This document shows, one piece after another, positions 3,152-64,000 of a stretch of 64,000 bases of DNA. The notes beneath the pieces are model-generated. The model did not search any database, had not been told where the DNA came from, and saw only the letters and a program-made list of their open reading frames with translations. The stretch comes from an uncultured archaeon (GTDB lineage: Archaea; Thermoplasmatota; Thermoplasmata; Thermoplasmatales; Thermoplasmataceae), in NCBI GenBank assembly GCA_000965745.1, contig CP009479.1:2162688-2226687 (forward strand), in the 5' to 3' direction. The position numbers and the translations under genes were made by a program. How positions within the stretch are numbered: position 1 is the first letter of the stretch; every line of letters starts with the position of its first letter.

Positions 3152-3691
3152 ATGGCAAGAAAAGACTTTGATGATTGGGATGAAGATTTCTTTGGAGACA
3201 TGTTCAGTGAGTTCGGCTTTGACTTCAAAAAGATGAACGAGCGCATGAGGAAGATATGGGACAGGATGCTTCACGACCCTGATTTTGCCACACAGGAACC
3301 TTACGTTTACGGGTTCACATACAAGGTCGGGCCGGAAGGCAAGCCCTATTTCCAGGAGTTCGGGAACATGCCGGGAATGAGGAGAGAAAGGGCAAACATC
3401 CAGCAGAAAGACGTTAGAGAGCCAATAACAGACATTACAGAAGACAAGGACAAGTCGTACTTCACGTTCGAGCTTCCAGGAATATCAAAAGAGAACATAG
3501 ACCTGAAAGTATCTTCCAGAAACGTAACCATCAGTGTAAAAGAGGGCACAAGGAAATACTACAAGAGCATCGATCTCGACTATGAGGTTAAGCCCGAATC
3601 TGCCAAGGCCAGGTTCGTGAACGGCATACTTGATGTTTCGCTGGAAAAAACAACGAAAGAAGGCTCCGGAAAAACCATAGACATCGAGTGA
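3152..3691 (+). CDS. hsp20: Archaeal small heat-shock protein Hsp20
   Basis: YGFTYKVGPEGKP..QEFGN, REP.TD, ELPG, A.F.NGILDV alpha-crystallin motifs; ATG 3152 with SD GAGGTG. Confidence 0.93.
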   Translation: MARKDFDDWDEDFFGDMFSEFGFDFKKMNERMRKIWDRMLHDPDFATQEPYVYGFTYKVGPEGKPYFQEFGNMPGMRRERANIQQKDVREPITDITEDKDKSYFTFELPGISKENIDLKVSSRNVTISVKEGTRKYYKSIDLDYEVKPESAKARFVNGILDVSLEKTTKEGSGKTIDIE

Positions 3692-54156: not shown

Positions 54157-54229
54157 GGGACCGTGGGGTAGCTTGGTATCCTACCAGCTTGGGGTGTTGG
54201 TAACCTGAGTTCAAATCTCAGCGGTCCCA
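54157..54229 (+). tRNA. tRNA-Pro(GGG)
   Basis: GGGACCG/CGGTCCC acceptor stem, anticodon arm CCAGC-TTGGGGT-GTTGG, T-loop TTCAAAT; starts 1 bp after rpoN stop. Confidence 0.93.
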
Positions 54230-54239
54230 TCATATTCAT
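54225..54239 (+). other. Candidate 15-bp target site (duplication) of the casposon, TCCCATCATATTCAT
   Basis: Last 5 nt of tRNA-Pro plus 10 nt, directly before GGGGATATA; second copy expected outside the window. Confidence 0.6.
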
Positions 54240-54283
54240 GGGGATATAGATAAGACCGAAAAACGTGCCGCTTTTTATATCCC
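54240..54283 (+). repeat. Probable left terminal inverted repeat of the casposon
   Basis: Starts GGGGATATAG; internal IR GGGATATA (54241-54248)/TATATCCC (54276-54283); true TIR length unknown without right end. Confidence 0.65.
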
Positions 54284-54295
54284 ATTTTAAAAATT

Positions 54296-54392
54296 TTAGT
54301 CGCCTTTATCCGATTTCAGGTAAATCTCTAAAAGGGTTTTGGAAATTCTTGATTGAGTCTTCAACTAATTTCCATTTCTGTTTGAAATTCTT
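54296..54392 (-). pseudogene. Degenerate duplicate of casposon polB 3' end
   Basis: Reads NFKQK/NGN*LKTQSRISKTLLEIYL vs polB NFKQKIRNGNGLKNKSKISKMLFESYL; shared 16-mer at 54375-54390 and 55813-55828. Confidence 0.75.
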
Positions 54393-54421: not shown

Positions 54422-55663
54422 TCATTTATTTTGATCTCCCATCCATAAGGGTCTACTGAGTATGCATTGTAATACAATGATAGTGGGTACAAAGAAATCA
54501 TAAAACCACTGAGAAATGGTAGGTTCTTCGACAATATTCGAATGAACATAGTCATTAAGCTTGGAATATATCTCCGAGTAAATTATATCTCCAAAATATG
54601 AACCTTTTGCACTCTTTTGTATCTCTCTAAAAGAATCTACTACACACGAATTAATTCCCTCTAATTCTTCCCTTTGTAATTGAAGTTTAATCAACTTAGA
54701 CATTGCTCTAGTGTCAGGTCTTGAATAAATCCCGTAAATGGTTGCATTGTTCTCACAATCAGAATAACCACAAAGATAACCTTCTCCCTTATCAAATTCT
54801 GGCCCAATGAAAGTTAACTGAGAAAGTTCTTGTTTCAGGTCTTTAGTCAGTTCATTTTTGATTCCGAATCTCTTTTTTAAATCTTCTAACAAATTGCCTT
54901 CGTGTTGCTTGCACGCTCTCAAAGTAAACTCATCGTTGCTCATCAATATCCAGTAAAAATATTCCGTATTCCCAAGAGTCTTAGTTGCGATATCTGGCCA
55001 TTCATCAGTATCCTTTATCAAGTTCATAAAAAATTCATTGAGTGATTTTTCCAATAATTTTTTCAATCTTTGCTCTTCCTTGGTTGTAATTTTATCCTTA
55101 TCAAAATCAAACTTTGAAACGATATCTGGATAAAATTTATCTGATAGTTCTCGCAATGAGCTTATTGCACGTTTTCTTTCTTCCCCAAATTCTAATATTG
55201 GAAGAACTAAACCGTCTAAACTCAAAGGTTTCATTTTATCCCAATATCCAGAAAAAAAGGCATCTGCCATTGGATTAGTGCCTTCCTCATTTTTTTGGCT
55301 ATCTGGTACCCATGAAGAAACAGTAAACAGACCTGCGAAAAGAAGGTCTAACACCGATCTAATCTCCCTAAGTGAATACTTGATGTATCCCTCTCCAGCC
55401 AACTTTATTGAAATCCCTAATTCTCCAAAAATATCTGCAAGTAGAAGTTTAAACTGTTCTTCAATCTTCTTTCTAGTATTATCCGATGAAATAGATTCCA
55501 CATACCATGAATAATTGTCAAAGAGTTCAGATAAGTGGGAAATAGCTTTAGAAATCTCTTCATAAGTTGGATATGGAATATTGAAAATTTCATAAAAATC
55601 TTTGAGAAGAAGTCCTTTTTGTGCCCATTGGGTGATTCCGATGATATCTAGTTTTCTTGACAC
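54422..55663 (-). CDS. Casposon cargo protein, possibly HEPN-like (DUF5677-type)
   Basis: 413-aa ORF with LREIRSVLD and IYSKLNDYVH motifs; TTTATAAA box at 55681-55688. Confidence 0.6.
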   Translation of the reverse strand: MSRKLDIIGITQWAQKGLLLKDFYEIFNIPYPTYEEISKAISHLSELFDNYSWYVESISSDNTRKKIEEQFKLLLADIFGELGISIKLAGEGYIKYSLREIRSVLDLLFAGLFTVSSWVPDSQKNEEGTNPMADAFFSGYWDKMKPLSLDGLVLPILEFGEERKRAISSLRELSDKFYPDIVSKFDFDKDKITTKEEQRLKKLLEKSLNEFFMNLIKDTDEWPDIATKTLGNTEYFYWILMSNDEFTLRACKQHEGNLLEDLKKRFGIKNELTKDLKQELSQLTFIGPEFDKGEGYLCGYSDCENNATIYGIYSRPDTRAMSKLIKLQLQREELEGINSCVVDSFREIQKSAKGSYFGDIIYSEIYSKLNDYVHSNIVEEPTISQWFYDFFVPTIIVLQCILSRPLWMGDQNK

Positions 55664-55728: not shown

Positions 55729-56539
55729 CTAAATGTCCGTCAAACTCAAATAACTCTCAAAAAGCATCTTGCTAATCTTTGATTTGTTCTTCAATCCATT
55801 TCCATTTCTGATTTTCTGTTTGAAATTCCTTAAACCCCTTTCTGAAATACCCAACGCCTTGACTTCACTGGGCTTGAGTTTTAACGTCCATTGCATAAAC
55901 GCTTGTTTGTTCTCGTATTCAAGATAAGAATCATTGCTTACCCCGAATACACTAACTTCATCGATATTATTTGATTCCTTCCCAATGTATCTGATTCGGT
56001 CTGCGAATACGTGTTTCCTTTGGGCCTTGTTGTTAACATAATCGAACTTGTTATCGTTATGTCTCACGTACGCTGTTAACACATCTTCAAGGGATTTCCA
56101 GTATTCATTAGAAGGCAAAGTCAATGCAATTGAAGATTTTCCAGTCCTGTAATCTACAAATTCCCTATACTGGATTCCGTTTATGTCCTTTGAAAATGGT
56201 AATGACGGAATAACATCATTCTTCTCAGACCCTACGAGAATGAAATTGAAGGGCTTTATCTGTCTATTAAAGGGCTTCTTGTGATTCATCTCCTTGAAGC
56301 GATTAAGAATTGAAGGTTTCGAGATGGTAATTTGAGATACTGCAATCTTTTCTGAGTAATCTTCAAATTTATTGTTCAAGATATCTTTCCAAATCTGTTT
56401 TCCATTTATACCAAGGAGATGGCCCAATCCATGGGTGGAATACTTGAGTATTTCTACCTCTCCTTTGACAATCCTATACAGACAATATCGCTTTGCTGAA
56501 ATTCCATAAAACAAGATATCGTTCAACGGATTCTTGTTT
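55729..56539 (-). pseudogene. polB: Casposon family-B DNA polymerase, C-terminal fragment
   Basis: FYGISAKRY (KxY motif), HGLG, IKPFNF, IGKE; cut by IS3 left end. Confidence 0.85.
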
Positions 56540-56617
56540 TGTGCTGGCCCCTTAAATAATTGGACAACATTGGCTTATAGTAATAGAAAAGTATATATAG
56601 GGGGGTTCTAGGGGGAA

Positions 56618-56920
56618 ATGACTCGCAGATACTGGAAAGCGGAAGAGAAACTGGCACTCATCAACGAGATCAAAGAAAGCGGACATGTCGTTGAAACCTG
56701 CAGAAAATATTCTGTGGATCCATCCATGTTCTACCGTTGGAAACAGGCCTTCGATGCACTAGGCATGGATGGGCTCAGATCCCGTACAAGGTCCTTGGAA
56801 CCAGGCCTCAGAAAGCTGAAGAAGGAGAACGAGAGATTGAAGAAGATGCTTGCAGAGAAGGAACTGGAGGTATCACTGCTCCAGGAAGCATATAAAAAAA
56901 CGAGGAGGAAACCGCGTTGA
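56618..56920 (+). CDS. IS3 transposase OrfA (HTH + leucine zipper)
   Basis: CRKYSV.PS.FYRWK, LKKENERLKK.LAEKELE. Confidence 0.92.
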   Translation: MTRRYWKAEEKLALINEIKESGHVVETCRKYSVDPSMFYRWKQAFDALGMDGLRSRTRSLEPGLRKLKKENERLKKMLAEKELEVSLLQEAYKKTRRKPR

Positions 56921-57813
56921 TCAATGAGTATGCTGGACGTGGGCTCTCAACGACCAGAATCCTGGAACTTCTAAGGATACCACGGAGCACATTCTATCAT
57001 TCATCGCCTGCATTGCATCTCAAGAGAGGGAGGAAGCCTTCATCGATGACTGAACGCATTGTTGGCCAGGATATCATAATGATTCCCGATGATCAGGTCC
57101 TTGCCGACATCATTGAGTTGCTGTCAAGGGAATTTGTATGCTATGGATACAGGAAGGTCACCAAACATTTGCAGCGCACTGGCTACAGGATCAACAGGAA
57201 GAAGGTCTTCCGCATCATGAAAGAGAACCATCTTCTCAACCACACATACAACTACCGCAGCCCTGCAAAGAGGGTGGTTGAATCCATTGTCAGGGTTCAT
57301 AACCCGAATAAAGTCTGGGAGATGGACATCAAGTATGTGTACATACAGGGAGAGAATCGGACAGCATACCTGTTTGCAATGATTGACTGTTATACAAGAG
57401 AAGTTGTCGGAAAGTACCTGGGATACCACTGCACCTCTTCAGATGTGAAGATGGCAATGGATTTTGCCTTCATGGACAGGGGAATAGAGGCAATATCCAG
57501 TGTCAGGATCCGCAGTGATAATGGGACTCAATTCGTATCACGGATAGTGGAGCTGTTTCTCGCTTCATCCCATATCGAACATGAGAGGATCCATCCTGCA
57601 ACGCCCAAGGAGGACGGTTTCATCGAATCCTTCAATTCCATCCTTGAGAAGGAAGTGATCAGAAGGTTCGAGTTCTCTTCATTCCAGGATGCTGATGACA
57701 CCATTGATAGGTTCATTGCATTCTACAACAACGAGAGACTACACTCAGCCATAGGCTATAAAGCACCAAGGGAGGTTTATGAAAGATGGAAAGAAAATCT
57801 AATAGAAGAATGA
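56917..57813 (+). CDS. IS3 transposase OrfB (DDE)
   Basis: YGYRKV, WEMDIKY, SDNGTQF, IESFN, YNNERLHSAIGY..P; -1 frame relative to OrfA. Confidence 0.93.
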   Translation: MINEYAGRGLSTTRILELLRIPRSTFYHSSPALHLKRGRKPSSMTERIVGQDIIMIPDDQVLADIIELLSREFVCYGYRKVTKHLQRTGYRINRKKVFRIMKENHLLNHTYNYRSPAKRVVESIVRVHNPNKVWEMDIKYVYIQGENRTAYLFAMIDCYTREVVGKYLGYHCTSSDVKMAMDFAFMDRGIEAISSVRIRSDNGTQFVSRIVELFLASSHIEHERIHPATPKEDGFIESFNSILEKEVIRRFEFSSFQDADDTIDRFIAFYNNERLHSAIGYKAPREVYERWKENLIEE

Positions 57814-57863
57814 GCATGACTCATAAGCCAATCCTGTCCACAATTAGGGGACCAAACCACAGA

Positions 57864-58586
57864 CTAATACAATTCAGATGTTATTCTAACGTCATTTATG
57901 TTGTAGTCGATGTATTTCTCGTTGATTTTCCCATGCTGTTCAATCTGAGTTTTTCTTGAAACGCTAAAATCCCTGCATGCAGAATCCAGAGAATGTGATC
58001 TGTCAGTTAAAGCAAAAGTGAGGGTCTTGAGGTCAACAAAGTATCCGGAATAATGCCTGTATTTCTTGTCGCTAGCTTTTCTCATGGGTTTCGCAAAGGA
58101 AATGAAAGACCTTTTCTGGTCTATGTTCTGTATCCGAATTCGTGGATTCCTCACATCCTCTGACAGCTTCAGTGAAAATCCGTCTTTTGTTTTGCGTGAG
58201 ATTCCATATCCAATGGCCAATCTTGACAGGTCAAAGGGCAAATTGAAGCCAATGACCTCAGCCCGCATTCTGAATGCGTATGGGTAGAACACATTATCCA
58301 CAAAGTCCCTGATTCGCATAACAACTATGTTATTCTCAGACCCGTAATCTTCTATGATTTTCCCGTCATTATCAGAAATATCACCATAAAACAGATACCA
58401 GTCCTCTTTGAAGCCGGTGCTAATCCTTGTTCTGATAAGACATGATCCAAAATTCAGGTTCTGATACTGGTCTGTGGTGGTTTCAGTATCAAGAATCAAA
58501 ACGATGTTTGAATTGTGAGATTCCGGTTCTTTGTGTTTGAGTTCCGACCTGTTATCTGTGTATGCCCTCACAAAGATATCGCTCAC
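57864..58586 (-). pseudogene. polB: Casposon family-B DNA polymerase, N-terminal 3'-5' exonuclease fragment
   Basis: ExoI LDTETT, ExoII GFNLPFDL, ExoIII YNINDV; ends 2 bp from IS right end. Confidence 0.87.
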
Positions 58587-58984
58587 AGGATCACCGGATA
58601 TCTTGATGTCAGGTATTCAGCAATCCTCTTGTATATGCCAATACCAGTTCTTTCATGCTTCAATTCACAAATGTCAATAATTCCCCTCTCCAAGAGAATT
58701 TCAGAATTCTGGTAATTCCATAATCTATGTTTGTCTGTTAGCTTCCTATGACATTCCAAACATACCGTTATAACCTCGTTGCCATGACTCCTGCCTCTGA
58801 TGTGATGTACTTCCAACTTTATTGGTGATCTGCAAATCTCACACTCGTTCTTTTTGTCTCTATGTTCATTCTCTAAAATATCTGTTATCCAGTCTTTTGC
58901 CTCTTGGTATTCATTGTCTACTATTTCCTTTGCTCTGAACAGGGTCTCGAATATTGTGCTGGATATGGATATCTTGGAAATCAA
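58583..58984 (-). CDS. HNH endonuclease
   Basis: CEIC...LEVHHI......N..TVC..CH. Confidence 0.85.
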   Translation of the reverse strand: MISKISISSTIFETLFRAKEIVDNEYQEAKDWITDILENEHRDKKNECEICRSPIKLEVHHIRGRSHGNEVITVCLECHRKLTDKHRLWNYQNSEILLERGIIDICELKHERTGIGIYKRIAEYLTSRYPVIL

Positions 58985-59631
58985 GACTTGTAAATCTCCC
59001 AGAATTCCGGTTCTTCCTGACTTTCAGCTATTTCGTAAAGCTTATCTGGGTCAGTTTCAAAGTGATGTAATTTACCATTTGCATCTTTGAAAGGTTTCTT
59101 GAATGGCTTCAAAACATCTGTGTTTCCTGTTCTCAGAAATTCTCTGATAGCAGAGTTATACTTTCCTATTCTTGATGCAGTTCGTGAATCTCTAACTTCA
59201 ATCCATGACTGTTTTCCATTTTCGTTTATGCTCATTACTCTTGATATTCTATCCTGAGACTTTGCAACCCATTTTCCTCTGATTTTTCTAAAAGAATTGG
59301 TGTTCTTGATAACTGTCTCTGGTGAAGTGTGCAACTCTCTAGATGCACTTGAAAGTGATTCTCCATTCCTGACTTTCCTCAGAACTTCAAGCGATTTTTC
59401 CCTTTGATTCAGGTCTTTCTTTGAAATGGATTTCCATGAACGTCTGTATATTGGTTCTGGTTTTGTTGCTGATACAACTCTTTCCCTGGATTTCGGATGA
59501 CCCCTAAGCTGTGATAATGAAGCGGTTGGATATTTTGCATGCAACCTGGCGATACGATTCCTGTAGGATTCTGATCCTTTGAAACTGGATAACCAATCCT
59601 GAAATGACCGGTATTCCGGTGAAAATGTCAT
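58981..59631 (-). CDS. Casposon-associated basic HTH protein
   Basis: GESLSSASRELHTSPETV HTH-like segment; 4-bp overlaps with neighbours. Confidence 0.65.
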   Translation of the reverse strand: MTFSPEYRSFQDWLSSFKGSESYRNRIARLHAKYPTASLSQLRGHPKSRERVVSATKPEPIYRRSWKSISKKDLNQREKSLEVLRKVRNGESLSSASRELHTSPETVIKNTNSFRKIRGKWVAKSQDRISRVMSINENGKQSWIEVRDSRTASRIGKYNSAIREFLRTGNTDVLKPFKKPFKDANGKLHHFETDPDKLYEIAESQEEPEFWEIYKS

Positions 59632-60101
59632 CTGAAATCGCCCTTGAGCAAGTTAAGGAAATTTTCATACGCAATGCTGTTAAACAGCTTCTCAAATAAT
59701 CTTATGTCAGACTCAAAAAACCGGTGTTTTTTGAAGATTTCAGCAAGGTTGGAGACTTCAATATCCGAGATGGGTTCTTTTGTTGTTAGTGAAGTAACAT
59801 TCTTATTGAGGGCCAAGGCAGTAAGAACTTCAAATATTACCCCGATTGTTTTTCCCCTGTACCAAAATGAATCACATTCTGACACTGACAAAATGTAAGG
59901 CTTCATTGACCTCTTACCTTTGAACTCAAGGCCATTCGGGTTAACCGTTATTGAATGCCCAAATGAATTCAGGAAATCAAGGTCATCCTTCTCAATTGAT
60001 ACGTTGTATAATCTGATTGAATGGGCATAGTGGATTTTATTCATTCTGTGAGCATTTGCATTTGGCTTGTGGGTCTGGTTATCCGCATAATCAGACATCA
60101 T
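59628..60101 (-). CDS. Hypothetical protein
   Basis: 157-aa ORF translationally coupled within the operon. Confidence 0.65.
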   Translation of the reverse strand: MMSDYADNQTHKPNANAHRMNKIHYAHSIRLYNVSIEKDDLDFLNSFGHSITVNPNGLEFKGKRSMKPYILSVSECDSFWYRGKTIGVIFEVLTALALNKNVTSLTTKEPISDIEVSNLAEIFKKHRFFESDIRLFEKLFNSIAYENFLNLLKGDFR

Positions 60102-60288: not shown

Positions 60289-60339
60289 CACATATTATGT
60301 GGAAATATTCTAATAGACAGTTGACTATACTTTAGTCAA
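60289..60339. promoter_or_regulatory. Divergent control region with two palindromes
   Basis: CACATA-T-TATGTG (60289-60301) and TTGACTA-N5-TAGTCAA (60321-60339). Confidence 0.65.
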
Positions 60340-60968
60340 TGGCTTATGACAAATTCCGAACTCAAAAGGAAACGAAAGACAAGAATGAGAGGAAAATTTT
60401 GAATTTGCTCTATGATTCACCAATGAGATTCAAGGACTTACTTGAAGAAACAAGACTGTCAAGAGCTGGTCTTGATATTATATTGAAAAGACTTCAAGAC
60501 ACAAAACAGATAGAATCCATTATCGATGGTGGGAAACCTGCTTATTCACTAACAAAGAAAGGGGAGAAAACAGTCAAATCTATCCCCATTATTCAGGATA
60601 ACATAGAATCGATACTCAATGTAAAACACGAATATTCCAATGAAATGGGAAAATTTCGTCTTGGATATAAGGGAATAGACTTTGATGTGTTGAGGGATGC
60701 CCAAGTAGATGCCAACCTCACAAACACCTTTGAGGAAATTGCCAAGGAATGTCTCAAGAAATCCGAGAATACAATAGCAGATATTCCTGATATTGTCAGG
60801 GATAAATCAGAACTCAAAGGAAAAATGGTTCTTGCTCTCACAATAGATTTTGATGACATGAGAGAGCAATTTATGAAAAGAAACAATAAAGCTTGGAAAA
60901 AATTTGGCCTGAAATGGGAAAATGAGGAAGGTTGGGAAAGACTATTATCAGGGGAGGATCCAAAATGA
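60339..60968 (+). CDS. wHTH (MarR/ArsR-like) transcription regulator
   Basis: KIL.LL...PMRFKDL...T.LSRAGL...LKRL...Y.LT.KG. Confidence 0.8.
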   Translation: MAYDKFRTQKETKDKNERKILNLLYDSPMRFKDLLEETRLSRAGLDIILKRLQDTKQIESIIDGGKPAYSLTKKGEKTVKSIPIIQDNIESILNVKHEYSNEMGKFRLGYKGIDFDVLRDAQVDANLTNTFEEIAKECLKKSENTIADIPDIVRDKSELKGKMVLALTIDFDDMREQFMKRNNKAWKKFGLKWENEEGWERLLSGEDPK

Positions 60969-62230
60969 ACCCATTGCTGTTATCTGGATTTGGAATAAGC
61001 ATTGAGGTTAACAAAGCTCGCCTGACCATAAAGCAAAAGAATGACATTTTGACGTTTGAGCCTCACAGAATGCCATACGATTCCATTGTCATTGACGGTC
61101 ATTACGGTTCTATGAGTTTTGAGGCCATGCGTTGGTTATCCAAACATGATGTACCCGTAATTTTGTTAAACTGGAATGGCAATCTTTTATCAATAATGTC
61201 TCCAAAAGAGGGCAATAGTGGTCAACTGAGAATGAAACAGTACGAAAAATACCTTAAAAAAGAGGAAAGAACGGTAATAGCAGAAAAAATAATTAAAGAA
61301 AAAATAGGAAAATCGCTTGCTTTGCTTGAAAATTTAGCAGATTTTCATCAGGAAATAAACTTTGAAAAAATTAAAAAGGCATTTTCTAAGGAATTTGAGG
61401 ATTTTAACCTGAAAAAAGAGAAAATAAACATTCTAAAAGATGAAAAAACCAAGAAAAATAAAACAAATGCAGAAAAAAGGGATTTAAAAAAGAAAATAGC
61501 TGACCTAATGATGTATGAAGGCAGAATAGCATCAGCCTACTGGTCAGAATTGTCAGGAATTTTCAATAAAATAGCACCAGAATTTAATTTTGAGTCCAGA
61601 AAAAATCTCTCTTATTCCTGGAATATGAATGCATCAGACCCGATAAATGCACTACTGAATTATGGATATGCAATTCTTGAAGGAATGGTCAGAAAATACG
61701 TAAACACAATAGGGCTTGACCCATCTATTGGATTCTTGCATGAAATAGCACCCTCAAAATATCCACTGGTATATGATTTACAGGAATTGTTCAGACACGT
61801 TGTGGATTATTCGGTTATACAGATTCTTGAATCCGGTTTAAAAAAATCAGATTTCATTATCACTGAGAATTATCACATCCGGTTGAAGCCCAATACTGCA
61901 AGGTTATTGATTGAAAGAATAAAAGAGAATTTCAATCAACGTTATGATTTCAGAAATAAAAAGCATAGCCTTGAAAATATAATGCTTGAGAATATTCGGG
62001 AATTCAGCAAATATCTGGTGGATAAAAAAAATACACTTGATTTTGTAATGCCTGATATTGAGATAAAGAGGAATGACAGCACCAAGGTTCGGAAAAAAAT
62101 TGAGTCAATAACACCAGAGGGAAGAAAAAAACTAAAAATCAATAAATCTACATTGTGGTATCAGCAAAAGAAAATTAAAGAAGGGAAGCCGGTTAAACTC
62201 TATGAGAAGACTAAAGTGAGAATCTCATGA
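60965..62230 (+). CDS. cas1: Casposase (solo Cas1 with C-terminal HTH)
   Basis: YEG..A..YW, DPINALLNYGY, GLDP.IGFLH, LVYDLQELFR, C-terminal LKINKSTLWY; ATG 60965 overlaps upstream stop. Confidence 0.93.
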   Translation: MNPLLLSGFGISIEVNKARLTIKQKNDILTFEPHRMPYDSIVIDGHYGSMSFEAMRWLSKHDVPVILLNWNGNLLSIMSPKEGNSGQLRMKQYEKYLKKEERTVIAEKIIKEKIGKSLALLENLADFHQEINFEKIKKAFSKEFEDFNLKKEKINILKDEKTKKNKTNAEKRDLKKKIADLMMYEGRIASAYWSELSGIFNKIAPEFNFESRKNLSYSWNMNASDPINALLNYGYAILEGMVRKYVNTIGLDPSIGFLHEIAPSKYPLVYDLQELFRHVVDYSVIQILESGLKKSDFIITENYHIRLKPNTARLLIERIKENFNQRYDFRNKKHSLENIMLENIREFSKYLVDKKNTLDFVMPDIEIKRNDSTKVRKKIESITPEGRKKLKINKSTLWYQQKKIKEGKPVKLYEKTKVRIS

Positions 62231-63144
62231 ATAGCGGTAATTTTCCTAAATTTGATGAATTTTTATCCCCAATACTGAATTCCTGCAAGGATAGACAAGA
62301 GCATACACTTTCAGAGACCATAGAGAAAATGGCCACTGAATTCGGAATGAGTGATAACCAGAAAAATGCACTTTTACCAAGCGGTAAACGAACATATATT
62401 TATGACCGGGTTGAATGGGCCATCACTTATCTTGTTCAAGCGGGATTATTAGAAAGAACTGGACGGTCAAAGTTCAGAATTTCTGATGCTGGCTTGACAG
62501 AGCTTCCTGTGATGCCAAAAAAAATATCTCACTCCTATCTGCAAAAGTTTCCGTCTTTCGTAAGATTCAAGGAACTTCGACATCCAAAAAAACAAAATAC
62601 TGATGACTCAAATGGTATGACCCCCGATGAGGAACTAGAAGTTCTCTTTGAAAGAAGGGAAGACATTCTGATACAGAATTTGCTAAGTTCTATCTCCAAC
62701 ATCAAACCGTCAGACTTTGAAAGACTCATTATAGATTTGGTTCTTGCTCTTGGCTATGGCAAAAATCATGAAGAAATGGCTAGAGTTTTGGGGAAGTCAG
62801 GCGACCAGGGAGTTGACGGGGAGATATCTCAAGATAAATTGGGATTAGACAAGATTTATCTTCAAGCAAAAAAGTGGGATTCCAAAAGTTCAATTGGGTC
62901 TGGTCAAATAAGAGATTTCATAGGTGCGTTAACAATTAAGAACGCTCTAAAGGGGATTTTTATAACGACAGCTTCTTTTTCAAAGGATGCTAAAGAAACT
63001 GCCTTGAAAGATAACACTCACAAGATAGTTCTGATAGATGGAAATGAATTGGCAAGTTTGATGATTGAACATGGGATTGGAGTAAGAACTGTCAGAAATT
63101 ATGAATCAAAGGAAATTGATGAGGATTACTTTGAATCATTTTGA
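62227..63144 (+). CDS. mrr: Mrr-family type IV restriction endonuclease
   Basis: Mrr_N (LPSG....DRV.WA..YL..AGL) plus SGDQGVDG, YLQAKKW, GIFITT, LIDG. Confidence 0.93.
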   Translation: MNSGNFPKFDEFLSPILNSCKDRQEHTLSETIEKMATEFGMSDNQKNALLPSGKRTYIYDRVEWAITYLVQAGLLERTGRSKFRISDAGLTELPVMPKKISHSYLQKFPSFVRFKELRHPKKQNTDDSNGMTPDEELEVLFERREDILIQNLLSSISNIKPSDFERLIIDLVLALGYGKNHEEMARVLGKSGDQGVDGEISQDKLGLDKIYLQAKKWDSKSSIGSGQIRDFIGALTIKNALKGIFITTASFSKDAKETALKDNTHKIVLIDGNELASLMIEHGIGVRTVRNYESKEIDEDYFESF

Positions 63145-63158
63145 ATTGGTGAATTGAA

Positions 63159-64000
63159 ATGAAGAATTCCGGGGGTCACGAAGAATACAACATTGATTTC
63201 GAAAGAATTGTAGAGCTCATATCAAAATTTGAACATGCCAAGAAATCCGGTGAAATCAAGAATTACAATGAAGAATCAACAAAGAAGGATTTCATCTTAC
63301 CTTTGTTTGAAGCTCTTGGATGGAATGTATCCAATAGAGCCAAGAAAAACGATTCCATAAGTGCGGAAGAAACCATTTCCAAGAAGAGAGTGGATTATGG
63401 ATTCCGCATAAACGGTATTCCCAAGTTTTTCCTTGAAGCAAAATCCCTGAAAGAAGATTTCATACATACCAACAGGTCTTATGTCACACAGGCAATAGAT
63501 TATTCGTGGATGAAATCGTGCAGTTGGGCCATACTTACAAATTTTGAAACCATATCGGTAATAAATGCAGACATAAGAGAGAGCAATTTCACCAACAGTA
63601 TTTTCTTTACACTTCATCCAAGCGATTTCCTTAATGATGACAGATTCACACTACTTTCAAGAGATGCCATAGAGAACGGTGAGCTTGACAAACTTGCTAC
63701 AAAATGGGGAAGGAAACAGGTCAAAAATCCAATCAATAAACAACTTCTACAGGACATGATACATTTCCGTGAGATTCTTTCAAAGGATATTGTGAAAAAT
63801 AATCAAAACAAGCATCTAACTCAAGAAGATTTAGATGAATCGGTCCAAAGGATTCTTGACCGACTCATTTTCATAAGAAATGCTGAAGATAGGGAACTTG
63901 AAGAAAATCGTTTGCAGTCCGATCTAAGGCAATGGGCATCAAAAGGGAAGGGTCAACTGGTCAGAGAAATTTCAAAGGTATATGCTTATTTCGATCAACA
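63159..64000 (+). CDS. Type IIG/HsdR_N-like restriction-modification enzyme, N-terminal part (runs off window; absent from ORF track)
   Basis: NEESTK..FI.PLFEALGW, RVDY, FLEAK, QA..Y, ILTNFE, QRILDRLIFIR.AEDR; no stop to window end. Confidence 0.85.
   Translation, partial: MKNSGGHEEYNIDFERIVELISKFEHAKKSGEIKNYNEESTKKDFILPLFEALGWNVSNRAKKNDSISAEETISKKRVDYGFRINGIPKFFLEAKSLKEDFIHTNRSYVTQAIDYSWMKSCSWAILTNFETISVINADIRESNFTNSIFFTLHPSDFLNDDRFTLLSRDAIENGELDKLATKWGRKQVKNPINKQLLQDMIHFREILSKDIVKNNQNKHLTQEDLDESVQRILDRLIFIRNAEDRELEENRLQSDLRQWASKGKGQLVREISKVYAYFDQ

Follow-up and report, generated by a model that had tools for sequence, protein, structure and literature searches.

Directly downstream of a tRNA-Pro gene in the genome of an uncultured archaeon lies a sequence that resembles the end of a mobile element. 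Is a casposon integrated there, and by which rules was its target chosen? It has been proposed that the CRISPR adaptation module descends from casposons, and to our knowledge only few of them have been studied in any detail. The window analyzed here is the last 64 kb (64,000 nucleotides) of a single contig of 2,226,687 bp. It closes a one-contig genome, so that the DNA downstream of the window is the start of the same record (L001). Five-digit positions below refer to the window, and all others are genome positions or are given with their locus.

The original prediction was made from the letters of the window. It placed a casposon left end and a 15-bp target site beside the tRNA, and took the Aciduliprofundum boonei element as its model. 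This element is AciBoo-C1, a family-2 casposon of strain T469 (Krupovic et al. 2014, PMC4046053; Beguin et al. 2016, PMC5137440; Beguin et al. 2019, PMC6614799).

The two junctions of the element

The junctions contain the following features.

54157–54229, plus strand: intact tRNA-Pro(GGG) gene (ARAGORN), ending in ...AGCGGTCCCA; its 3' part is the integration 'leader'
54211–54217, plus strand: T-loop motif TCAAATC, with 8 bp between it and the duplicated segment downstream
54226–54239, plus strand: left copy of the 14-bp duplication CCCATCATATTCAT, whose only other genomic copy is at 3409–3422
54240–54334, plus strand: left TIR, 95 bp, with the tip GGGGATATAG (blastn against the right end)
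54241–54283, no strand assigned: internal inverted copy of the terminal motif, GGGATATA ... TATATCCC
L001:3315–3408, outside the window: right TIR

The sequence at 54157–54290 is exactly as it had been written down in the original prediction, with the tRNA end, ten nucleotides and then the TIR tip. The ten nucleotides directly 3' of tRNA-Pro are TCATATTCAT (54230–54239), and GGGGATATAG follows at 54240–54249. CCCA forms both the last four nucleotides of the tRNA and the first four of the 14-mer. It starts at 54226 and is separated from TCAAATC by the 8 nt at 54218–54225.

A right junction of the form ...TATATCCCC followed by CCCATCATATTCAT had been expected outside the window. It was found across the record origin at genome 3399–3422, where the inverted TIR tip CTATATCCCC (3399–3408) abuts the 14-mer (3409–3422). 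The element is therefore 13,169 bp long, with its right end at genome 3408, and crosses the origin of the circular record. Alignment of the left end with the reverse complement of the right end by blastn gave 83 identical positions of 95 (87%) with one gap (E 6e-22). At the 15th position the left side has T and the right side has C, the last base of the TIR, so that the exact duplication is 14 bp. Of the predicted 15-bp target site, the duplication itself was borne out, and its length was corrected to the 14 bp at 54226–54239.

An element that spans the start and the end of a record lies where assemblies are sometimes mis-closed, and the agreement between the two ends and 14-mers could then be a coincidence or an artefact of joined contig ends. 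However, the 14-mer has exactly two copies in the 2.23-Mb genome, with about 0.017 further copies expected by chance, and the E value of the TIR alignment argues against coincidence as well. The type IIG restriction-modification gene of the element aligns without a break across the origin to its homologue in a related casposon (L002), which indicates circularity of the record at this position. In L002, a single contig holds an element of the same structure, and an empty site in a relative, G019, joins both flanks exactly. The probability of a coincidence or an assembly artefact is practically negligible.

No further copies of the junction geometry were found in this genome. The other genomic occurrences of GGGGATATA, the start of the TIR, are unrelated, apart from one possible match. 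With no tRNA nearby, GGGGATATAGATAACGCCGAA at genome 1809030 agrees with the TIR tip in 19 of 21 positions; it may be a chance match or a solo TIR relic.

The empty site and the right flank

The rpoN–tRNA-Pro flank was searched in 40 relatives, and the same tRNA follows rpoN in all of them. In G019, which belongs to the same family and another genus, tRNA-Pro is followed by TCATATTCAT and then by the sequence found here 3' of the right duplication. G019 thus has the uninterrupted site, with a single copy of the 14-mer, no element and the two flanks joined exactly. In the three genomes of the same genus (G001–G003), GGGGATATAG does not occur after tRNA-Pro. A missing right junction, or GGGGATATAG after tRNA-Pro in element-free relatives, had been named beforehand as evidence against the casposon end. 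Since the junction was found and these relatives lack GGGGATATAG, both objections fall away. These results confirm that the predicted casposon left end beside tRNA-Pro is real.

The same tRNA is used elsewhere too. In G009 and L033, from another genus, a different casposon end lies at this tRNA with an equal 10-nt spacing. The right flank was also considered as mobile DNA shared with G019 and was rejected as such; the match to G019 is limited to its first 195 bp.

Just past the right end, an ORF at L001:3256–3678 reads towards the tRNA and weakly resembles tyrosine integrases in their C-terminal part (3e-4 with Pfam Phage_integrase, which is below the gathering score). At L001:5690–5715, 2.3 kb downstream of this ORF, the tRNA-Pro 3' end is partially repeated as TTCGAATCTCAGCGGTCCCA, and thioredoxin-like and NTase/HEPN genes are found between the two or just beyond. 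The ORF and the partial tRNA copy look like the remnant of an older integrase-type element at tRNA-Pro. In another relative (G018:C41:205867–217875, the start of which is covered by L037), a 31-bp copy of the tRNA-Pro 3' end with TCATATTCAT is located 11.4 kb downstream of tRNA-Pro. No GGGG tip follows tRNA-Pro there, and an integrase-type element probably occupies the same tRNA.

The element studied here could accordingly be read as a plasmid or provirus of the tyrosine-integrase type, with the tRNA-Pro 3' end as its att site and Cas1 as a passenger. Integrase-type elements do use tRNA-Pro in this group, as suggested by the fragment at L001:3256–3678 with the partial tRNA copy near genome 5690–5715, and by the 31-bp copy about 11 kb downstream of tRNA-Pro in G018. 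However, the flanking repeat here is only 14 bp long, and each copy directly adjoins a perfect inverted tip; this is the signature of a transposon and not of an att core. Among the genes of the element, searches with Pfam found no integrase. The integrase remnant is located past the right duplication, and G019 has it too, next to its empty site. An integrase-type origin is highly improbable. The segment at 54226–54334 almost certainly forms the left junction of a family-2 (A. boonei-type) casposon, which is 13,169 bp long and located just downstream of tRNA-Pro(GGG).

Gene content of the element

Within the window, the element contains the following genes.

54422–55663, minus strand: 413-aa cargo ORF, adjoining the left TIR
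55729–56526, minus strand: C-terminal PolB remnant, residues 595–867 of L002 PolB (tblastn, 78% identity; 38% to A. boonei PolB)
56561–57840, plus strand: IS3-family IS of 1280 bp with orfA/orfB (Pfam HTH_Tnp_1 and rve; NCBIfam transpos_IS3, 4e-58)
57864–58586, minus strand: N-terminal exonuclease remnant of PolB, residues 1–244 (tblastn, 86% to L002, 50% to A. boonei PolB)
58583–58984, minus strand: HNH endonuclease (Pfam HNH 1e-4, above the gathering score)
58981–59631, minus strand: conserved casposon protein of 216 aa, probable HTH (identity of 87% with its L002 counterpart and of 54% with that of A. boonei)
59628–60101, minus strand: conserved 157-aa protein (75% identical to its L002 homologue)
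60339–60968, plus strand: winged-helix (HxlR/ArsR-like) HTH protein of 209 aa, upstream of the casposase (weak Pfam matches)
60932–62230, plus strand: intact casposase (Cas1 with a C-terminal HTH; Pfam Cas_Cas1 7e-57)
62227–63144, plus strand: Mrr-type restriction endonuclease, cargo (Pfam Mrr_cat 4e-31, Mrr_N 1e-23; also in L002)
63159–64000, plus strand: N-terminal part of a type IIG restriction-modification gene, cargo (Pfam HSDR_N; Eco57I/N6_Mtase)

The casposase is 56% identical to that of A. boonei over the full length, and both the E/H/E motifs and the INKSTLWYQ helix at the C-terminus are conserved. Its best match among solved structures is the M. mazei casposase 6OPM (4.6e-78), and its true start is likely the ATG at 60965. 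The elements of L002 and A. boonei each have a homologue of the HNH endonuclease in this position. The L002 homologue of the 216-aa protein has weak HTH matches, and that of the winged-helix protein scores above the HxlR gathering score. No family match was obtained for the 157-aa protein in Pfam and NCBIfam. The type IIG gene continues across the record origin, with its remainder at L001:1269–3236, and is collinear with the intact 897-aa gene of L002. The 413-aa ORF has no match in Pfam, NCBIfam or PDB, shows no homology to the gene that takes its place in L002 and is not common to the L002 or A. boonei elements; it is variable cargo.

No Cas2 family was found among the ORFs of the element by Pfam, and no CRISPR-type repeat array was found with the element. 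Without its IS copies, the element has a G+C content of 36% versus 46% for the genome. A stand-alone Cas1 with a C-terminal HTH, HNH and HTH proteins and TIRs are features of family-2 casposons, and all are present here. The same holds for the duplication of 14–15 bp overlapping the last 4–7 nt of an intact tRNA, which here overlaps by 4 nt (CCCA). The element is a newly found, decayed member of the known A. boonei-type family-2 casposons.

Decay of the element

The IS3 copy (56561–57840) stands in place of PolB residues 245–594, the core with motifs A–C. It has 18-nt terminal inverted repeats (TGGACA.../...TGTCCA) and two other genomic copies that are 100% identical. The missing PolB core was found nowhere else in the genome by tblastn. 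Searches of Pfam, NCBIfam and PDB for PolB gave no match for the ORFs at 54422–55663 and 55729–56526 or for the 883-aa protein of L002, and PolB was recognized from the motifs of the L002 homologue together with homology to the A. boonei element. The L002 protein contains DTETT, YNINDV, DFTSMYPT, KIIANATSYG and YCDTDS, which correspond to Exo I/II and motifs A, B and C. Only remnants of the family B polymerase are left here, residues 1–244 and 595–867 relative to L002 PolB. A second IS, at about genome 17–1268, splits the type IIG gene; it is flanked by an 11-bp direct repeat and has a second copy that is 99.8% identical.

Judged by sequence, the PolB ancestry is clear and the gene is predicted to be non-functional. 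This copy of the element is decayed, with an intact casposase and two intact TIR tips. It can probably no longer copy itself, and its own casposase might still cut or join it. Because the PolB core is missing, the term 'self-synthesizing' does not apply to this copy today.

Relics of other elements were matched elsewhere in the genome by tblastn. At genome 2153436–2153911, which ends about 8.8 kb short of the window, there is a second fossil PolB C-terminus of the casposon type (77% identity with L002 PolB), and a Cas1 remnant, also short, lies at 1601727–1601945. Casposons have colonized this host more than once. The Cas1 at genome 1251505–1252314 (26% identity) is of the CRISPR type.

Related elements and their tRNA targets

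A casposase-based search of GTDB species genomes gave 26 loci, mostly from Thermoplasmata. The nearest relative found is the L002 casposon, from the Thermoplasmata MAG LSA5.bin55 (L002:3268–15052). It is collinear with the element studied here and, across roughly 6 kb of the core, about 84% identical to it in DNA sequence; it has a casposase that is 85% identical, a near-identical TIR, a 14-bp duplication and the same Mrr and type IIG cargo. In contrast, its PolB (883 aa) and restriction-modification gene (897 aa) are intact, a different gene lies beside its left TIR, and it sits at tRNA-Val(TAC) instead of tRNA-Pro. Two elements that share a near-identical TIR, and whose casposases are 85% identical, thus occupy different tRNA genes.

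When 17 tRNA-adjacent ends were compared, with this element and that of A. boonei counted, the T-loop motif was exactly 22 nt from the GGGGATATA tip in 16 of them. The 16 ends adjoin tRNA-Val, Ile, Met and Pro, and a few lie beside a tRNA-like end that was not called. The exception is L004 (Thermogymnomonas), which has three extra G between the 14-mer and the TIR. The spacing between TIR and target is therefore not absolutely invariant.

In this genome, TCAAATC-N8-CCCA occurs only five times. Four sites coincide with the 3' ends of tRNA-Val(CAC), Val(TAC), Ile(GAT) and Pro(GGG), and the fifth resembles the 3' end of a tRNA but was not called by ARAGORN. The tRNA targets of the relatives are the same kinds of tRNA that carry the motif here. 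At genome 749417 (tRNA-Pro TGG), 1491892 (tRNA-Pro CGG) and several tRNA-Gly, Glu and Asp genes, the T-arms read GTCCAAATC or GTCCGAATC, not GTTCAAATC; in these arms C replaces the usual T54/U55 region.

Two further observations concern the relatives. At L003:6096–6129 (MAG TVZ.SD19.226), the tips of two casposon TIRs point towards one another with only one 14-mer, CCCACTTTTATTTC, between them; this 14-mer is also found 3' of a tRNA at L020:5598 in the same MAG. L003 and L020 are apparently a tandem casposon pair sharing one duplication, an arrangement that had been predicted as possible (PMC5137440). Related casposases from acidic sites were also found in MAGs assigned to other phyla: L012 (Marsarchaeota), L007 (Micrarchaeota), L005 (labelled 'bacterium'), L025 and L026. 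They are 51–74% identical to the casposase studied here, or are C-terminal fragments with 87% identity, and L012 and L026 also have a GGGGATATAGATAAG tip. Either horizontal spread or binning error could account for them.

The internal inverted repeat of the TIR

The original prediction also pointed to an internal inverted repeat in the left end, and this is present, with GGGATATA at 54241–54248 and TATATCCC at 54276–54283. The repeat might act as a hairpin or offer the casposase a second site, as a requirement of excision or replication priming, and be more than sequence conserved within the TIR. What it repeats in inverted form is exactly the terminal motif, and across the eight closest related ends it is retained in 94% of cells, with one compensatory change in L021. 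An analogous GGGGAT...ATCCCC lies within the first 20 nt of the A. boonei TIR, and TIR conservation beyond the five terminal nucleotides implies other roles (PMC6614799). However, the covariation among the eight ends is not significant, being matched or exceeded in 116 of 500 shuffles, and folding predicts no unusual stability for the ssDNA hairpin (z from -2.1 to +0.2 for both strands of both ends). Other TIR subgroups (L003, L013 and L020; L004; L006) are without the repeat, and A. boonei integration in vitro needs only TCCCC (PMC6614799). A function of the internal repeat in excision or priming is unlikely.

Target recognition and its wider meaning

The casposon end beside tRNA-Pro can be compared with the A. 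boonei casposase's target rules. The mapped determinants are TCAAATC 8 bp upstream, CC at +1/+2, the TIR 3' end TCCCC and a 14-bp yardstick, and TCAAATC at that distance is required by the enzyme in vitro (PMC6614799). TCAAATC, CC at +1/+2 and the TCCCC 3' end are all at the expected positions in the element studied here, and they recur in 16 of the 17 tRNA-adjacent ends, with this element and that of A. boonei counted.

By analogy, the casposase would read the T-loop motif TCAAATC. One casposon 3' end (...TCCCC) would be joined 8 bp on, just before the CC of the final CCCA of the tRNA, and the other 3' end would be joined 14 bp downstream on the opposite strand. Gap repair would duplicate the 14-bp CCCATCATATTCAT and leave the tRNA intact. 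We infer the integration chemistry, the order of strand transfer and the present mobility; the proposed mechanism draws on the biochemistry of the 56%-identical A. boonei enzyme and on the exact conservation of all mapped determinants.

It seems rather likely that one casposon lineage in acidophilic Thermoplasmata recognizes its targets by a generic tRNA code (T-loop TCAAATC, 8 bp, CCCA). Reading such a code, the lineage could move between tRNA-Val, Ile, Met and Pro without changing its ends. If true, this would be an in vivo confirmation and a generalization of rules known only from in vitro work with one enzyme. The element, its intact L002 cousin and a dozen related ends form a natural series, which agrees with the A. 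boonei in vitro target rules (leader motif, CC dinucleotide and 14-bp yardstick) and displays the same geometry at four kinds of tRNA gene. The locus also supplies a clean pair of a filled and an empty site, and an example of decay in which host IS copies destroyed PolB and the restriction-modification cargo and the casposase survived. For annotation, the casposon explains a 13-kb AT-rich island that spans the record origin.

Comparison with the A. boonei and M. mazei casposons

The published oligonucleotide LE26r, GGGGATATATATACATCCCCTCTTAA (PMC6614799 supplement), was used as a pattern against 401 Thermoplasmata genomes. It matched one of them (G029), at 380324 and, inverted, at 389399. The G029 locus carries the published target GGTTCAAATCCGGGCGGCCCCACT..., with the palindrome AGTCCCCCTTTGGGACT downstream, and G029:380324–389399 is taken to be the A. 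boonei casposon on this sequence evidence. This element is 9,076 bp long and is flanked by CCCCACTACGAGGAG. Two A. boonei features on which the original prediction had relied agree with this locus and with the published oligonucleotides. The A. boonei TIR begins with GGGGATATATATACATCCCC..., as in LE26r, and the A. boonei duplication starts with CCCA at the end of tRNA-Pro and leaves the tRNA intact.

The A. boonei target is the 3' end of tRNA-Pro (PMC5137440). Both elements show TCAAATC, 8 bp, CCCA, 10 bp and then the TIR, both lie in the same orientation relative to the tRNA, and both share the TIR start GGGGATATA and the 3' end TCCCC, the first 9 nt of the left TIR being identical to the A. 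boonei TIR. The gene order is also shared, with PolB, HNH and the 216-aa protein on the minus strand, the casposase on the plus strand and methylase-type cargo. The casposases are 56% identical, and A. boonei PolB is 48% identical to L002 PolB. These results support the A. boonei-like reading of the left end and its target.

The two elements differ in several respects. The element studied here is larger (13.2 kb versus 9.1 kb), and its TIR is 95 bp (87% identical) versus 37 bp as given for A. boonei in PMC6614799. Its PolB was destroyed by an IS3-associated deletion, unlike that of A. boonei, and its cargo adds Mrr, the IS-split type IIG restriction-modification gene and the 413-aa ORF. The tRNA-Pro gene here is the GGG isoacceptor and was called without an interruption, whereas the A. 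boonei gene has an intron (PMC5137440) and was missed by ARAGORN. The exact repeat is 14 bp here versus 15 bp in A. boonei, where the base at -1 is also C; only because of this C does the A. boonei repeat read as 15 bp. The base at -1 is T in the element studied here and G in L002, and both repeats are 14 bp. These natural 14-bp duplications with a base other than C at -1 settle the ambiguity between 14 and 15 bp at the A. boonei site.

The M. mazei elements, which belong to a different host class, presumably target tRNA-Leu. Comparison with them covers the casposase and the duplication. These family-2 casposons (PMC6977970, PMC4779613) also encode a casposase with a C-terminal HTH, represented by 6OPM, the best PDB match of the enzyme studied here (4.6e-78). 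The M. mazei duplication is likewise 14 bp, and its first four leader-proximal nucleotides are conserved (PMC6614799).
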